Made by a program: the position numbers and the translations under genes. Shown here one piece after another: positions 52,369 to 59,088 of a stretch of 64,000 bases of DNA (the first letter of the stretch is position 1; each line of letters starts with the position of its first letter). Under the pieces are notes generated by a model that worked only from the letters and a program-made list of their open reading frames with translations, did no database searches and was not told the origin of the DNA. The DNA comes from a plasmid. Where the stretch lies: the sequence record NZ_LR134454.1; one strand, given 5' to 3'.

Positions 52369-53532
52369 ATGCAGAAGTTTCGGAACCTCACGATCCTGGT
52401 GATCGCCGCGGCCGGCGTCGCGGCGTGCGGCCCGTCGAACCCCGACGCCGCGCTGTCCACGACGACCGTGGCGCAGGCCCCGTCGGCGACGAGGTCCGCG
52501 GCACCGTCGTCGGGCCCGGGACGCCCGGTGACCTGCGCTTCGGACTTCCTCGCGAAGCTCTCGGTGCGGGAGAAGGCCGGGCAGTTGCTCATGGTCGGCG
52601 TGAAGGACGCGGCCGACGCCCGGCGCGCCGTGCAGCAGGGCGTGGGCGGCGTGTTCATCGGTAGCTGGACCGACAAATCCGTGTTCTCGGGCGGGACGCT
52701 GCAGGGCGTCGCGAAGGCCGGGAAGGTGCCGGCGATGGTCTCCGTCGACGAGGAGGGCGGCCGCGTCTCCCGCGTGCCCGGCGCGAACCTCGTCTCGGCG
52801 CGCGAGCTGGCGCGCACGAAGACCGTCGCGCAGGCGCGAGCCGAGGGCGCGCGCGTCGGCAAGCTGTTGAAGTCGATGGGGATCACCGTGGACTTCGCCC
52901 CCGACGCCGACGTCTCCGCCCAGTCCGACGACTCCGTGATCGGCGACCGCTCGTACTCGAACGACCCGGCCGTGGTCGTGAAGTACTCGCAGGCCTTCGC
53001 CGCGGGCCTGCGCGACGGTGGCGTGTACCCGGTGTTCAAGCACTTCCCGGGGCACGGCAGCTCGTCGGGCGACTCGCACCAGGGCGGGGTGAGCGTGCCG
53101 CCGCTGAACGCCTTGAAGGCCAAGGACCTCGTGCCCTTCCGCGCCGCGGTCGACACCGGCGACGCGGGCGTCATGGTCGGCCACCTGACGGTGCCCGGCC
53201 TCACGGAGCCGGGCCTGCCGACCAGCCTCAGCCCGGCGACGATGCGCCTCCTGCGCGACGGTGCCGGGTACGGCGCGAAGCCCTTCGACGGGCCGATCTT
53301 CACCGATGATCTCTCCGGGATGAAGGCGATCACCGACCGGTTCAGCGTGCCGCAGGCCGTCGCGAAGTCGCTGGAGGCGGGCGCCGACGTCGCGCTGTGG
53401 ATCTCCACCGATCAGCTGGGCGCGGCGCTCGACGCCGTGGAGGCCTCGGTGAAGGCGAAGCGCATCACGATGCGGCGCCTCGACGATTCCGTGCTCCGCG
53501 TGGCGCGGGTGAAGCACGCCGTACGCTGCTGA
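52369..53532 (+). CDS. lpqI: Beta-N-acetylhexosaminidase lipoprotein (GH3, NagZ-like)
   Basis: Lipobox VAAC. GH3 motifs KHFPGHGSSSGDSHQG. Position after aftD as in Mtb Rv0237. Confidence 0.85.
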   Translation: MQKFRNLTILVIAAAGVAACGPSNPDAALSTTTVAQAPSATRSAAPSSGPGRPVTCASDFLAKLSVREKAGQLLMVGVKDAADARRAVQQGVGGVFIGSWTDKSVFSGGTLQGVAKAGKVPAMVSVDEEGGRVSRVPGANLVSARELARTKTVAQARAEGARVGKLLKSMGITVDFAPDADVSAQSDDSVIGDRSYSNDPAVVVKYSQAFAAGLRDGGVYPVFKHFPGHGSSSGDSHQGGVSVPPLNALKAKDLVPFRAAVDTGDAGVMVGHLTVPGLTEPGLPTSLSPATMRLLRDGAGYGAKPFDGPIFTDDLSGMKAITDRFSVPQAVAKSLEAGADVALWISTDQLGAALDAVEASVKAKRITMRRLDDSVLRVARVKHAVRC

Positions 53533-53555
53533 TTCCGAACGGATTTCACCGGAAC

Positions 53556-53600
53556 TTACTTGCGAGTAACCTCGTGGGCTAGGATCTGACTCGAGAGTAA
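53556..53600 (+). promoter_or_regulatory. Two operator-like dyads TTACTT-GC-GAGTAA (53556-53569) and TGACTC-GA-GAGTAA (53587-53600) upstream of the TetR gene
   Basis: Inverted repeats read directly from the sequence; the second overlaps the RBS. The same dyad recurs at 57265-57278. Confidence 0.55.
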
Positions 53601-53611
53601 GGAGGACGCCG

Positions 53612-54208
53612 ATGGCCGGTGGGACGAAGCGTTTGCCGCGCGCGGTACGCGAGCAGCAGATGCTGGACGCCGCCATCAAGGTGTTCTCGCGCAACGGCTT
53701 CTACGAGACGTCGATGGACGCGGTGGCCCGTGAGGCGCAGATCAGCAAGCCGATGCTGTACCTGTACTACGGGTCCAAGGACGAACTCTTCGCCGCGTGC
53801 GTCACGCGCGAGGCGGGCAAGTTCATGCGCAGCATCGAGTTCGACGCCAGCCCCACGCTGCCGCCGTCGCAGCGCCTGCGCTCGGTGATCGCCGGCTTCC
53901 TCAAGTACGTCGACCAGAACCGCGACGCCTGGCGCGTGATGTACCGCGAGACCACCGGCCAGGCCGCCTTCGCCGCGCTCTCCGAGAACAGCCGCGAGCG
54001 GGTCGTCGAGATGACCGCGGTGCTGCTCCGCGAGGCCGCCAAGTACGCGCCGGAGGACACGGATTTCGAGCTCTACGCCGTCGCCCTCGTCGGCTCCGGC
54101 GAGGCGATCGCGGACCGTCTGGCCACCGGCAAGGTCGAGCTCGACCGCGCCGTCGAGATCATGACCTCGTTCCTCTGGGGCGGCATCCGCGGCGAACGCC
54201 CGGAGTGA
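53612..54208 (+). CDS. TetR-family transcriptional regulator (Rv0238-like)
   Basis: HTH AAIKVFSRNGFYETSMDAVAREAQISKPMLYLYY. AAGGAGGA RBS. Confidence 0.85.
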   Translation: MAGGTKRLPRAVREQQMLDAAIKVFSRNGFYETSMDAVAREAQISKPMLYLYYGSKDELFAACVTREAGKFMRSIEFDASPTLPPSQRLRSVIAGFLKYVDQNRDAWRVMYRETTGQAAFAALSENSRERVVEMTAVLLREAAKYAPEDTDFELYAVALVGSGEAIADRLATGKVELDRAVEIMTSFLWGGIRGERPE

Positions 54209-54209
54209 G

Positions 54210-54773
54210 TCAGTCGGACAGTTCTTGCCACCACCGGCCGGAGAGGTGCGTGACCCTGGTCCGAGCCGCGTCGGTCGGGGTCGCGCCGTCGGGGTGGTAG
54301 GCCAGGCGCGTGGTACTGATCGACGGGCCGGCGATGTGGAACCGCACGACACTGTCGGTCTTGTACGCCGAGTAGACCTGCTGAGTTCCGATCTTCCGTG
54401 ATTCGTAGTCGACGACGTCCGCCCGCGGGTCGGCGAGCATCTGCTCGGCGACGGCCCGCAACCGGGGTTCGTCGTAGTTCCACCGGGCCTCGGGCACCGC
54501 GTTCGTCACGCCCAGCCCGATCGCGATCGCCCCGATCAGCGGAATGATCAGCAACCGCCACGCGAACCGGCGGATCGTGCGCGCCCAGGCCACCAGGTAC
54601 ACCAGCCAGCCCAGGAACAGAACCACACCGCCGAGGAGCGACAGCACGCCCAGGCCGGGGTCGCCGGGGAAGGTGCCTGCCCAGAGGAGCGCCGCGGCGT
54701 CGAGGACGAGAAAGACCGCCAGTCCGTACCCGAAGTGGGTCCAATTGCGCTGCGCCTCACGATCTGCCGTCAT
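54210..54773 (-). CDS. Membrane protein, unknown function (187 aa)
   Basis: Three predicted TM helices at the N-terminus. Convergent with the TetR gene. Confidence 0.45.
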   Translation of the reverse strand: MTADREAQRNWTHFGYGLAVFLVLDAAALLWAGTFPGDPGLGVLSLLGGVVLFLGWLVYLVAWARTIRRFAWRLLIIPLIGAIAIGLGVTNAVPEARWNYDEPRLRAVAEQMLADPRADVVDYESRKIGTQQVYSAYKTDSVVRFHIAGPSISTTRLAYHPDGATPTDAARTRVTHLSGRWWQELSD

Positions 54774-54837
54774 GCATCGACACTACGAGATGCTGCATGG
54801 CCCGAGCGCGGGAATGTCGACGCCGCTGCGTCCAGTG

Positions 54838-54864
54838 ACGGGTATGCGTTCCGCGCATCGCTCT
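54838..54864. repeat. Copy of the dispersed palindrome GGGTATGCG-N5-CGCAT
   Basis: GACGGGTATGCGTTCCGCGCATCGCTC, in the intergenic region downstream of htdX. Confidence 0.55.
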
Positions 54865-54963
54865 TCTGAACGACTACTGCACCCCCGCGGCCCGCGCGCC
54901 CGCACCCGGAGACGACGGTGCCCGCCGCGGCCGAAGCCGGGCGGGCACCGTCGGAGAACAGGG

Positions 54964-55854
54964 CTACAACGGCGTGACGGTGGCCGTCACGTGCGGGAAG
55001 CCCTTCTTGAGGTCCTTCGCGACGATCTCGGTACCGCCGGTCGCCTCGTCGCGCGAGACGTACAGGCCGATCTTCGCCGGCAGGATCACCGGGCGGCCGA
55101 AGCGCACGTGGTGCACGACCGCGTCGGGGATGTGGCCCTCGACGACGCGCAGCATCGCCGCGGCCGTCCACGCGCCGTGCGCGATCGAGGACGGGAAGCC
55201 GAACGCCTTGCCGCCGATCGGCGACATGTGGATCGGGTTCCGGTCGCCGCTGACGCCGGCGTAGCGGCGGATCAGGCCGCCGTCGGCCGAGAGCAGCGCG
55301 TCGGGGGCGCCGGGGCGGCCCTCCTTCGGCGCGGGCCCCGACGGCTCGCCGGACAGGGACGTCCGCTGCTGGATCAGCATCGTCGACACCTCGGAGGCCA
55401 CCGACGCGCCGGACGCGTCCGTGAACTCGGTGGTGAAGTCGATGAGCATGCCCTTGCGGTGCTCGCGGAGGTTGCCCACCGAGGTGCGCAGCGTGAGCTT
55501 CTCGCCCGGCTCGACCCGGCGGCGCCGCGTGATCGTGTTCTCCACGTGCACCGACCCCACCGCCGCGGCGGGGAAGTCGTCGGCGAGGAACAGGTCCATG
55601 ATCAGCGGGAAGGAGAGCACGTAGAGGTACATCACGGGTACCTCGCCGGTGTTCTTGAGCCCGACGACCTCGCAGTACTCGCCGACCCGCACGGGATCCA
55701 CGTCGACGGCGAGCTCGACGGTCCGGTCCGGCAGCGGGGTCTCCGGCTTGAGCGGGCCCTGCTTGCCGATCACGGGCAGGATGCCGCGCAGCCCGCGCGT
55801 GAGCACGGACAGGCTCGACGGCGGCGCCTGCAGGACGGTGGTCTTGGCGGCCAT
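54964..55854 (-). CDS. htdX: (3R)-hydroxyacyl-thioester dehydratase, double-hotdog (HtdX-like)
   Basis: MaoC motif YAGVSGDRNPIHMSPIGGKAFGF. ATG at 55854, two nt from the fabG4 stop codon. The track fuses this gene into a longer out-of-frame ORF. Confidence 0.75.
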   Translation of the reverse strand: MAAKTTVLQAPPSSLSVLTRGLRGILPVIGKQGPLKPETPLPDRTVELAVDVDPVRVGEYCEVVGLKNTGEVPVMYLYVLSFPLIMDLFLADDFPAAAVGSVHVENTITRRRRVEPGEKLTLRTSVGNLREHRKGMLIDFTTEFTDASGASVASEVSTMLIQQRTSLSGEPSGPAPKEGRPGAPDALLSADGGLIRRYAGVSGDRNPIHMSPIGGKAFGFPSSIAHGAWTAAAMLRVVEGHIPDAVVHHVRFGRPVILPAKIGLYVSRDEATGGTEIVAKDLKKGFPHVTATVTPL

Positions 55855-55856
55855 GA

Positions 55857-57215
55857 TCAGGCCCCCAGCAGGCTCTGACCGCAGACGCGCACGACGTTGC
55901 CGGTCACCGCGGCCGAGGACGGCGCGGCGAAGTAGGAGATGGTCTCCGCGACGTCGACGGTCTGGCCGCCCTGCTGCAGCGAGTTCATGAGGCGGCCGGC
56001 CTGGCGGGTGGCCAGCGGGATCGCGGCGGTCATGGCGGTCTCGATGAAGCCGGGCGCCACGGCGTTGATGGTGATGTTCTTCTTCGCCAGGACCGGGGTG
56101 TAGGCGTCGACGATGCCGATGACGCCGGCCTTGGTCGCGCCGTAGTTGGTCTGGCCGCGGTTGCCCGCGATGCCGGCGATCGACGAGACGTCGACGACGG
56201 CGCCGCCCTCGTTCAGGGCGTCCTCGGCGAGCAGGGCGTCGACCAGCTGCTTCGGCGCCTTGAGGTTGACGGCCATGACCGAGTTCCAGCGACCCTCGTC
56301 CATGTTGGCGAGCAGCTTGTCGCGGGTGATACCGGCGTTGTTGACGATGATGTCGAGGCCGCTGTGGCGCGACTTCACCAGTTCGGCGATCTTCTTGCCC
56401 GCGTCCTCTGCGGTCACGTCGAGGGGCAGCGCGGTGCCGCCGACCTTGTTCGCGACGGCGGACAGGGCCTCGCCGGCGGCGGGGATGTCGGCGGCGATGA
56501 CATGGGCGCCGTCGCGCGAGAGGACCTCGGCGATGGTGGCGCCGATGCCGCGGGCGGCGCCGGTGACCAGCGCGACCTTGCCGGCGAGCGGCTTGTCCCA
56601 ATCGGCGGGCGCGGCGGCGTCCTTGTCGGTGATGCGGATGACCTGCGCGTCGACGTAGGCCGACTTGCCCGACAGGAGGAAGCGCAGCGTCGAGGCCAGG
56701 CCCGAGGCGCCGGTGGCGGCGTCCGGGTGCACGTAGACGAGCTGCGCGGTGGCGCCGTCGCGGAGCTCCTTGGCGACGGAGCGGGTGAAGCCCTCGAGGG
56801 CGCGCTGGACGATGTGCTCGTCGAGGTCCTCGATCAGCTCGGGCGTGGTGCCGAGCACCACGACGCGGGCGCTGTTGCCCAGCGTGCGCATCTGCGGGCC
56901 GAAGAACTCGTAGAGGCCGACGAGCTCGTCGATCGACGTGATGCCGGTGGCGTCGAAGACCGCGCCGCCCAGCTTCTCGGCGCCGCGGGCGCCGCCGTTG
57001 TTGACGACGAGGTCGTAGTCCGCGAGCAGCTCGCGCACGGGCTCGACGAGGCGGCCCTTGCCGCCGAGGAGGACGGGGCCGGCGAGCGCGGGCTTGCCGG
57101 CCTGGTAGCGGCGCAGGACCGGCGGCTGCGGCAGGCCGAGTCGGCTGGCCAGGAAGGAGCCGGGGCCCGACTTCACGAAGGCCGCGTAGAAGTCCGTGCT
57201 GGGTGCATCAGGCAT
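55857..57215 (-). CDS. fabG4: 3-oxoacyl-[ACP] reductase FabG4 (two-domain, high-molecular-weight FabG)
   Basis: 453 aa from the ATG at 57215 ([23 protein letters not shown]...), collinear with mycobacterial FabG4 including [19 protein letters not shown] and NNAGITRD. The track ORF extends 5' without a stop but has no support upstream. Confidence 0.85.
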
Positions 57216-57264
57216 GTGAGGTACCTCATCCGTGTGGGGTTCCGATAGGCTATCGACAAGCAAC

Positions 57265-57278
57265 TTACTCCAGAGTAA
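57265..57278. promoter_or_regulatory. Operator-like dyad TTACTC-CA-GAGTAA in the fabG4 / fadA2 divergent promoter region
   Basis: Perfect 6-bp inverted repeat with a 2-bp spacer. Shares the extended context AACTTACT...GAGTAA with the sites upstream of the TetR gene. Confidence 0.55.
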
Positions 57279-57320
57279 GAATACTCGGTAGTAGCAACCC
57301 TCGATCACTGGGAGAAACCC

Positions 57321-58604
57321 GTGGCAAACATCGAAACCCGTCCGGTCGCCATCCTCGGCGGCAACCGGATCCCCTTCGCGCGTTCGGACCGTGCGTACGC
57401 GAAGGCCAGCAACCAGGACATGTTCACCGCCGCCCTCAATGGTCTCGTGAGCCGCTTCAACCTGCAGGGCGAGCAGCTGGGCGCCGTGGTCGGTGGCGCC
57501 GTGCTCAAGCACAGCCGCGACTTCAACCTGATCCGCGAGTCGGTGCTCGGCAGCCCGCTCAGCCCCTACACCCCTGCTTTCGACGTGCAGCAGGCCTGCG
57601 CCACCGGCCTGCAGGCGATCAACGCCGCGGCCCAGGGCATCCAGCTCGGCCGCTACGAGGCGGCCATCGGCGGCGGCGTCGACACCACCTCCGACGCGCC
57701 GATCGGCGTCTCCGAGGGCATGCGCAAGGTGATGCTCGAGCTCAACCGCGCGTCGAGCACCGTCGACCGCCTCAAGCTGGTCGGCAAGCTCCCGGCCAAC
57801 CTGGGCATCGACATCCCGCGCAACGGCGAGCCCCGCACCGGCATGTCGATGGGCGAGCACGCCGCCATCACCGCCAAGGAGATGGGCGTCTCCCGCGCCG
57901 AGCAGGACGAGCTGGCCTACCTCAGTCACACCAACATGGCGGCGGCCTACGACCGCGGCTTCTTCGAGGACCTGATCACCCCGTACCTGGGCCTGACCCG
58001 CGACGACAACCTGCGCCCGGGCAGCTCCGTCGAGAAGCTCGCCACGCTCAAGCCCGTCTTCGGCGTCTCGCTGGGCGACGCGACGATGACGGCCGGCAAC
58101 TCGACGCCGCTTACCGACGGCGCGTCGACGGTGCTGCTGTCCTCCGACGAGTGGGCGGCCGAGCGCGGCCTGCCCGTGCTCGCGTACCTCAAGGACGTGG
58201 AGTACTCGGCCGTGGACTACGTCGGCGGCAAGGACGGCCTGCTCATGGCGCCGACGTACGCCGTGCCGAAGCTGCTGGCCCGCAACGGCCTCACGCTGCA
58301 GGACTTCGACTTCTACGAGATCCACGAGGCCTTCGCCTCCGTCGTGCTCGCGACGCTGCAGGCCTGGGAGTCGCCCGAGTACTGCAAGGACCGCCTGGGC
58401 CTGGACAAGCCGCTCGGCTCGATCGACCGCAGCAAGCTCAACGTCAACGGCTCGTCGCTGGCGGCGGGCCACCCGTTCGCCGCGACCGGCGGCCGCATCG
58501 TGGCCTCCGCCGCGAAGCAGATCAAGGAGAACGGCGGCGGTCGCGCGCTGATCTCGATCTGCGCCGCCGGTGGTCAGGGCATCACCGCCATCATCGAGGG
58601 CTGA
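57321..58604 (+). CDS. fadA2: Acetyl-CoA C-acyltransferase (thiolase)
   Basis: GTG start. Thiolase active-site regions [10 protein letters not shown] and the C-terminal [16 protein letters not shown]. Confidence 0.85.
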
Positions 58605-58665: not shown

Positions 58666-59088
58666 ATGACCGCGACGGACGATCTGATCGAGAGGATCCT
58701 GCGCGACTACGACACCATCACGGTGGTCGGGGCCAGCGTCGATCCGGCGAAGGCGGCCCACGACGTGCCCGCCTACATGCAGCACCGCGGATGGCGCATC
58801 ATCCCGGTGAACCCGCACGCCGACGAGATACTCGGCGAGCCGGTGTACCGCACCCTGGCCGACGTCCCGGAACAAGTCGGCCTGGTCGACGTCTTCCGGC
58901 CCGCCGAGTTCACGCCCGACATCGCCCGGCAGGCCGTCGCCGCCGGGGCGACGGCGCTGTGGCTGCAGCTGGGCATCCGCTCGGCCGAGGCGCGCGAGAT
59001 CGCCGAGTCCGCCGGGCTGCTCTACGTCGAGGACCGCTGCCTCATCATCGAACAGCGCCGCACGCAGATCTCCAGGAGGAGCGCATGA
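58666..59088 (+). CDS. CoA-binding domain protein (YccU-like)
   Basis: TITVVGASVDPAKAAHDV...IIPVNP Rossmann-like CoA-binding motif. 140 aa. Confidence 0.75.
   Translation: MTATDDLIERILRDYDTITVVGASVDPAKAAHDVPAYMQHRGWRIIPVNPHADEILGEPVYRTLADVPEQVGLVDVFRPAEFTPDIARQAVAAGATALWLQLGIRSAEAREIAESAGLLYVEDRCLIIEQRRTQISRRSA

Follow-up and report, generated by a model that had tools for sequence, protein, structure and literature searches.

Predicted operators of an FdmR-type TetR regulator at the fabG4-htdX/fadA2 locus of Tsukamurella and their conservation across Mycobacteriales

The stretch of 64,000 nucleotides (nt) from the Tsukamurella plasmid record NZ_LR134454.1 analysed here (the window) carries a gene for a TetR-family regulator next to genes for acyl-chain enzymes, together with three short palindromic dyads resembling operators. 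The block begins on the plus strand with a nagZ/lpqI-like glycoside hydrolase family 3 gene (52369..53532; Pfam Glyco_hydro_3, E 9.8e-72), whose stop codon lies 79 base pairs (bp) 5′ of the start codon of the regulator gene (53612..54208, plus strand, 198 amino acids). On the minus strand follow an htdX-like gene for a MaoC-type (3R)-hydroxyacyl dehydratase (54964..55854; Pfam MaoC_dehydratas, E 4e-18), the in-frame translation of which begins MAAKTTVLQ, and a fabG4-like gene for a two-domain 3-oxoacyl reductase (55857..57215; NCBIfam NF006110, 673.8 bits at a cut-off of 410). Because only 2 nt separate the fabG4 stop codon from the htdX start codon, both genes are regarded as one operon. Across a gap of 105 bp, fabG4 diverges from a fadA2-like gene for an acetyl-coenzyme A (CoA) acyltransferase (thiolase) on the plus strand (57321..58604; NCBIfam NF006740, 761 bits at a cut-off of 539).

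The three dyads reported in an initial annotation of this locus were borne out when the letters of the window were read directly. Site 1 (TTACTTGCGAGTAA, 53556-53569) and site 2 (TGACTCGAGAGTAA, 53587-53600) both lie less than 60 bp from the start codon of the TetR gene itself, and the main site (TTACTCCAGAGTAA, 57265-57278) lies between fabG4 and fadA2. A search of the window with the pattern TTACTYNNGAGTAA, allowing at most one mismatch, returned these three dyads only, and none of 100 dinucleotide-preserving shuffles gave a match; a chance origin is excluded. The consensus TTACTY and the extended context that the annotation had ascribed to all three dyads apply to sites 1 and 3, which have the flank AACTTACT in common, but not to site 2, which reads TGACTC-GA-GAGTAA with one mismatch to the consensus and is flanked by ATCTGACT instead. 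The complete element is a 20-bp palindrome, AACTTACTC-N2-GAGTAAGTT. With a weight matrix of the same width made from orthologous sites, the main operator (AACTTACTCCAGAGTAAGAA, 57262..57281) reached 36.5 bits, site 2 (ATCTGACTCGAGAGTAAGGA, 53584..53603) 21.6 bits and site 1 (AACTTACTTGCGAGTAACCT, 53553..53572) 21.3 bits, no strand being assigned to any of them. The next-best position in the window scored −1.3 and the top score among 20 shuffles was 8.2. At a distance of 16 bp from the main operator, a further sequence (TACTCGGTAGTA, 57282-57293) matches the core TACT-N4-AGTA exactly; its aligned counterpart in Mycobacterium is the −10 region of the fadA2 promoter, GGGTAYTAT. It was rejected as a fourth operator, as its matrix score of −1.3 is at noise level and its conservation does not extend to Tsukamurella sp. 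8F.

The regulator combines a TetR_N domain (PF00440, residues 18-63, E 2.3e-16) with a TetR_C_46 domain (PF21943, residues 85-190, E 9.4e-27), both above the gathering scores, and thus has the N-terminal helix-turn-helix, the helical C-terminal domain and the length of about 200 amino acids typical of the TetR family. A palindromic operator close to a promoter, likewise typical of this family, is represented by 57262-57281, which lies inside the 105-bp gap and within a promoter-like element. The nearest named proteins are those of T. serpentis (89% identity) and T. soli (83%), and an identical protein in the same gene order is encoded in assembly GCA_900104775.1. Its description as Rv0238-like proved apt: over the full length it is 54-57% identical to Mycobacterium orthologues, which in the loci fetched are embedded in a block of nagZ, tetR, htdX-fabG4, fadA2 and fadE5. 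M. shimoidei, M. botniense and other Mycobacteriaceae loci were used in place of M. tuberculosis, and Rv0238 was compared via these. Similarity, synteny, motif and operator position all place the protein in the FdmR group; judged by these features, the window regulator is an orthologue of mycobacterial FdmR (Rv0238). In an alignment of 18 orthologues from Tsukamurella, Nocardia, Rhodococcus, Gordonia, Williamsia and Mycobacterium, nearly every residue of the DNA-binding domain (residues 1-63) was invariant or near-invariant, and the C-terminal domain was only moderately conserved. The near-invariance of the DNA-binding domain across genera fits the invariance of the operator.

The initial annotation had proposed a comparison of orthologous intergenic regions as a check, and we mapped the four genes in each of 80 related loci (1.08 Mb) taken from reference genomes. 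Across Mycobacteriales, the genes keep the order nagZ, tetR, htdX-fabG4 and divergent fadA2, with nagZ as the upstream neighbour of the TetR gene in nearly all of these loci. Hence, the block is conserved as had been assumed, but it is not specifically mycobacterial, since the window belongs to Tsukamurella and the arrangement extends throughout the order. A perfect TTACT-N4-AGTAA core was found in every fabG4/fadA2 intergenic region (54/54). In 74 of 79 loci, the TetR gene is preceded by a site with no more than two mismatches. Positions of at least 9 bits were confined to two regions, the stretch preceding the TetR gene and the fabG4/fadA2 gap, a result that is partly circular because the matrix was trained on the same sites. 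More weight is carried by the count of the pattern CTTACY-N4-AGTAA, which is independent of the matrix: 122 of its 123 matches fell within the two control regions. The consensus of the unique intergenic sites is AACTTACTC-N2-GAGTAAG(T/A)(T/A), with invariant outer letters and a free centre. In a seven-genome alignment of the fabG4/fadA2 gaps, the operator columns are invariant at a mean column identity of 40%. At the sequence level, such invariant columns in diverged gaps are the classical phylogenetic footprint of a protein-binding site. One nagZ-tetR pair with an upstream operator was found on a 4.3-kb contig labelled Acidobacteriaceae bacterium (L001, CAJCHX010000753.1). Its regulator is 82% identical to the Tsukamurella protein, and the contig is probably a mis-binned actinobacterial one.

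The mycobacterial literature already covers the regulator, its motif and the control that it exerts over fabG4-htdX and fadA2. According to the supplements of Minch et al. 2015 (Nat Commun 6:5829, PMC4301838), a peak from chromatin immunoprecipitation sequencing (ChIP-seq) of Rv0238 is centred at 292100 between Rv0242c and Rv0243, 14 bp from the primary start site of Rv0242c (fabG4; 292114) and 34 bp from that of Rv0243 (fadA2; 292134). In the same supplements, both genes are flagged as repressed upon overexpression of Rv0238 in M. tuberculosis (log2 −1.15 and −1.07, respectively), further Rv0238 peaks are given at Rv3029c/Rv3030 and at Rv3138/Rv3139 (fadE24, −2.04), and four Rv0238 peaks yield a non-palindromic motif, AACTTACtcCAGAGTAAGAtaGgtGTGC, and a palindromic one, AtCTTACTccggAGTAAGaT. 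Identical Rv0238 rows appear in the supplements of Turkarslan et al. 2015. The main operator of the window matches the Rv0238 ChIP motif AACTTACtcCAGAGTAAGA. FdmR is described in PMC12403877, citing Dong et al. 2021 (PNAS 118:e2019305118), as a repressor that responds to long-chain acyl-CoA, acts on genes of fatty acid degradation and modification, was characterised in M. marinum and represses its targets in vivo, and PMC9262360 refers to it as a key regulator of fadE5. We equate FdmR with Rv0238 because PMC12403877 does so, and the ChIP targets agree with the cited role at fadE5. Control of the FabG4/HtdX/FadA2 module by the TetR protein, as predicted in the initial annotation, is therefore supported by comparative footprinting and, by analogy, by the M. 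tuberculosis binding and overexpression data. The belief that this regulon had not been drawn before turned out to be mistaken, as it is contained in both sets of supplements and its regulator bears the name FdmR.

In the divergent control region, a promoter-like element TCGACA-18 nt-AAGAAT (57253..57282, plus strand) is a candidate fadA2 promoter; its spacer is taken up by the operator, which also extends into the −10 hexamer. Between 57150 and 57400 there is no other sigma-70-type match, with 0.0 expected, and this one is directed towards fadA2. Conservation of TCGACA and AGAATAC extends over Tsukamurella, Williamsia and Gordonia. A −10 hexamer TAYTAT is found about 7 nt past the operator in Mycobacterium, which agrees with the distance of 34 bp between the ChIP centre and the mapped fadA2 start. 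In M. shimoidei, 65 nt separate the operator from either start codon, and the M. tuberculosis ChIP centre lies about 71 nt from the start codons of Rv0242c and Rv0243. Since these distances are similar, we equate the M. tuberculosis peak with the operator. Transcription of fabG4 starts 14 bp from the ChIP centre, on the side of fadA2, so that the transcript would first run through the operator. The exact promoter positions given for Tsukamurella are predicted ones.

Taken together, the dyads would serve as operators for a dimer of the adjacent TetR protein, the Tsukamurella FdmR orthologue. Midway in the gap, the strong site (57262-57281) overlaps the predicted fadA2 promoter and, by analogy with M. 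tuberculosis, would also span the first bases of the fabG4-htdX transcript. A single bound dimer could therefore keep both units from being transcribed. The weaker sites, 53553-53572 and 53584-53603, lie on either side of the predicted −10 hexamer of the regulator promoter and may mediate negative autoregulation. In mycobacteria, long-chain acyl-CoA releases the repressor; a corresponding release in Tsukamurella, where long-chain acyl-CoA is the likely ligand by analogy, would permit synthesis of the acyl-chain enzymes in the presence of fatty acids. What this study established directly is that the sites exist, occur non-randomly and are conserved, and that the regulator is an orthologue. We consider it highly probable that the explanation as a whole is correct, i.e. 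that the dyads are operators through which the FdmR orthologue shuts off fabG4-htdX and fadA2 and negatively regulates its own gene.

Upstream of the regulator gene, Tsukamurella has site 1, then a conserved TANNNT hexamer and then site 2, which overlaps the predicted start region and the ribosome-binding site. The candidate −10 hexamer of the window is TAGGAT (53580..53585, plus strand), and a TANNNT sequence occupies the aligned position in all five Tsukamurella-type sequences (TAGGAT, TACCAT, TAGACT, TAGAGT and TAGACT). The two sites themselves are subject to turnover. Site 1, which is aligned and conserved in four of these five sequences, scores 21.3 bits in the window, 25.8 bits in T. sp. 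8F and 12.9 bits in T. soli, but has decayed to 0.3 bits in T. serpentis; site 2 reaches 21.6 bits in the window and 19.5 bits in T. serpentis. Retention of at least one self-site in each Tsukamurella-type genome argues for selection on autoregulation. Nearly all nagZ-tetR loci outside Mycobacteriaceae possess a site whose centre lies about 38 bp 5′ of the start codon; it typically reads AACTTACCTTGGAGTAAGAT with 30-38 bits, and in Nocardia, Rhodococcus, Gordonia and Williamsia it is homologous to site 1. The left half and spacer of this type of self-site read TACCTT and thereby form a TANNNT −10 hexamer. The spacer T that it requires is present in 55 of 62 unique upstream sites, compared with 5 of 31 fabG4/fadA2 sites. 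As a prediction, autoregulation is well supported by this conservation outside Mycobacterium. In Jongsikchunia kroppenstedtii (L066:4418-7600), the regulator gene has been relocated away from nagZ to a position 78 bp after htdX on the same strand. At this new place it has no self-site, and the locus retains a single operator, that of the fabG4/fadA2 gap. Such an arrangement is in keeping with regulator and operon being functionally linked.

Each of the eight Mycobacteriaceae loci examined has a degenerate self-site (TGCTTACSCTGGAGTCAG or worse), one scoring 11.0 bits and the rest at most 0.6. For instance, the right half reads AGTCAG or worse in L081:7952-7971, L082:7936-7955, L084 and L075. 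The left half and spacer (TACSCT) are found at the place expected for a −10 hexamer, with transcription starting about 32 nt before the ATG. This distance follows from an Rv0238 start codon that we take to lie at 288428. The corresponding mapped start site of Rv0238 in M. tuberculosis is 288396 (PMC4301838), and among the ChIP rows of Minch et al. 2015 that were examined, Rv0238 was not seen as a target of itself. In Mycobacteriaceae, the right half-site thus appears to have decayed, with the left half surviving as the −10 hexamer of the promoter. Considering the turnover in Tsukamurella and the fixed site at about 38 bp elsewhere, we tentatively suggest that negative autoregulation of fdmR might be an ancestral, selected feature of Mycobacteriales that was lost or greatly weakened specifically in Mycobacteriaceae, although we would put this at somewhat below an even chance.

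Not all observations favour operators upstream of the regulator gene, and weak sites that do little in vivo are the most serious rival to our explanation. Only the fabG4/fadA2 site might be functional, with the dyads before the TetR gene being decaying or neutral remnants, or acting on read-through from nagZ, and without any meaningful autoregulation. Several findings weigh on this side. Both upstream sites, at about 21 bits, are far weaker than the main operator with its 36.5 bits. Beyond the window, site 2 is conserved in T. serpentis only and is absent from T. soli, T. sp. 8F and the contig L001, and its right arm coincides partly with the ribosome-binding site AAGGAGG, while T. serpentis is the genome in which site 1 has decayed. 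A strict sigma-70 scan upstream of the TetR gene found no promoter, so that the −10 call derives from the aligned hexamer only. The degenerate homologous site in Mycobacteriaceae indicates that autoregulation is not universal in the family. Furthermore, binding and expression are taken from the orthologue: binding in vivo, repression and the acyl-CoA response of the Tsukamurella regulator would be as described in the literature on its mycobacterial counterpart. However, none of the Tsukamurella-type genomes examined lacks a site of at least 12.9 bits in the gap of about 80 bp before the regulator gene, and many of the sites retained at about 38 bp before the ATG in non-mycobacterial loci are strong. 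Retention in intergenic DNA that has otherwise diverged argues for selection, and we regard the remnant scenario as improbable.

Still less probable is the binding of a different regulator, such as a FasR-like or MadR-like lipid-sensing TetR paralogue, to the dyads, which would make the adjacency of the TetR gene coincidental. TetR paralogues are numerous in Mycobacteriales, and the best named NCBIfam model for the window regulator is in fact FasR, albeit with 87.7 bits far below the cut-off of 330. Against this stands that, in the published supplements, ChIP-seq of tagged Rv0238 yields this very motif from its few peaks. Moreover, the motif co-occurs with this regulator gene across genera, and the DNA-binding domain is as invariant as the operator. 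We therefore think it very unlikely that another protein is the cognate regulator. The palindromes might also be small RNA hairpins in 5′ untranslated regions or chance AT-rich palindromes in intergenic DNA. The segment 57282-57293 can pair with the main operator into a small hairpin, and 57255-57300 on the plus strand folds somewhat better than shuffled sequences (z = −2.55). The fold depends on 57282-57293, however, and this segment is unconserved in T. sp. 8F; the region before the TetR gene folds no better than shuffles (z = −1.04). On these grounds the hairpin was rejected. In addition, the half-site letters are conserved around a free centre of 2-4 nt without compensatory changes, a pattern of protein sites, and the number of such dyads expected by chance is zero. 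The probability of hairpins or chance palindromes is hence negligible, and operators of the adjacent FdmR orthologue remain our preferred explanation.

FdmR of mycobacteria resembles the Tsukamurella system in the orthologous TetR protein, the gene neighbourhood, the 20-bp palindrome and its place between fabG4 and fadA2. The differences are the host, the lack of fadE5 after fadA2 in the window and the two operator-like sites before the regulator gene, where Mycobacteriaceae have only a degenerate remnant. Moreover, repression and ligand response are known for the mycobacterial protein, whereas the Tsukamurella protein is known here from its sequence. The closest solved structure is PDB 3F1B (E 3e-69), an uncharacterised orthologue, followed by FasR (E about 1e-15). 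FasR (Rv3208; PDB 6O6N, 6O6O and 6O6P) is a long-chain acyl-CoA-sensing TetR activator of fas-acpS. Like FdmR it is a lipid-sensing TetR protein of Mycobacteriales, but it activates other target genes and is a paralogue rather than an orthologue. The Mycobacteriales proteins KstR and KstR2, which as TetR repressors govern cholesterol and lipid catabolism, likewise bind short palindromes over catabolic promoters as dimers and are released by CoA thioesters, and their regulon is conserved across Mycobacterium, Rhodococcus and Nocardia. They are only distantly related (E about 1e-6) and differ in motif, ligands and regulon. FadR (YsiA) of Bacillus subtilis, a repressor of beta-oxidation released by long-chain acyl-CoA, belongs to the same protein family and is alike in role and ligand class (PDB 3WHB, E 1e-8; NCBIfam FadR model, 47.5 bits). 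However, its N-terminal domain alone aligns, its operator is unrelated and it comes from another phylum.

Further operator-like sequences may point to a wider regulon. In Mycobacterium, two weaker sites, AAGTTACCCACCAGTAAC and ACTATACCNNNCRGTAACTT with about 10 and 4 bits, are arranged in tandem 26 bp apart upstream of fadE5 (L081:14491-14535, L082:15955-16000, L083:14418-14463, L084:16293-16338 and L074:13466-13485), consistent with the cited control of fadE5 by FdmR. A metagenome scan for the exact operator returned at least 120 stretches, mostly chance matches in AT-rich genomes, and only those above 58% G+C were interpreted. Among the matches listed, 22 contigs exceed this value, and nine of the 22 are fabG4/fadA2 gaps. 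Other high-GC operators among these matches adjoin two acyl-CoA dehydrogenases, a DUF4442 protein, a PlsC-type acyltransferase and a SnoaL-like protein, neighbours that fit a regulon of fatty acid catabolism. One listed contig of 65.5% G+C (L175:1747-2408) has a perfect 22-bp palindrome, TAACTTACTGGTCAGTAAGTTA, directly upstream of another TetR gene (TetR_C_7, AefR-like). A closely similar operator may be in use in an unrelated TetR subfamily.

The surroundings of the block vary between genera and strains. Directly after fadA2, the window encodes a protein with a CoA_binding_2 domain (58666-59088), and the genes past fadA2 comprise this CoA-binding protein and an ABC-2 transporter. Neither fadE5 nor further operator sites were found in a search of the window. 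fadE5 is located downstream of fadA2 in Mycobacterium, directly so in three of the four loci fetched, and a preprint places the M. tuberculosis small RNA F6/SfdS downstream of fadA2 as well. In a metagenome strain with an identical regulator protein (L086:5598-10075), an island encoding an Eco57I-type N6-methyltransferase, a GmrSD_N protein and an AAA_21 ATPase lies between the regulator gene and htdX. The same interval of the window (54209-54963) contains only an unannotated open reading frame of 187 amino acids (54210-54773, minus strand). The interval between regulator gene and htdX has the appearance of a small hot spot at which defence genes are inserted.

In summary, the locus represents the known FdmR fatty acid switch seen in a related genus, which is correct biology but not a novel regulon. 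The regulator-operator pair controls the acyl-chain enzymes FabG4, HtdX and FadA2, in mycobacteria also FadE5, FadE23/24 and EtfBA, and in pathogenic mycobacteria the switch steers host fatty acids between degradation and lipid synthesis. The operator is letter-for-letter alike in Tsukamurella, Nocardia, Rhodococcus, Gordonia and Williamsia, implying that the switch is older than the genus Mycobacterium. The simple motif can be used to annotate the FdmR regulon in any Mycobacteriales genome, which is useful but leaves the known picture unchanged. The residual novelty is modest. The only new angle is the difference between lineages in self-control of the regulator, namely a self-site that is conserved outside Mycobacterium and undergoes turnover within Tsukamurella. 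If the suggested loss in Mycobacteriaceae is true, mycobacteria would express their repressor of fatty acid catabolism without feedback, and this rewiring could bear on the fitness of M. tuberculosis and on the isoniazid and stationary-phase phenotypes of the gene.

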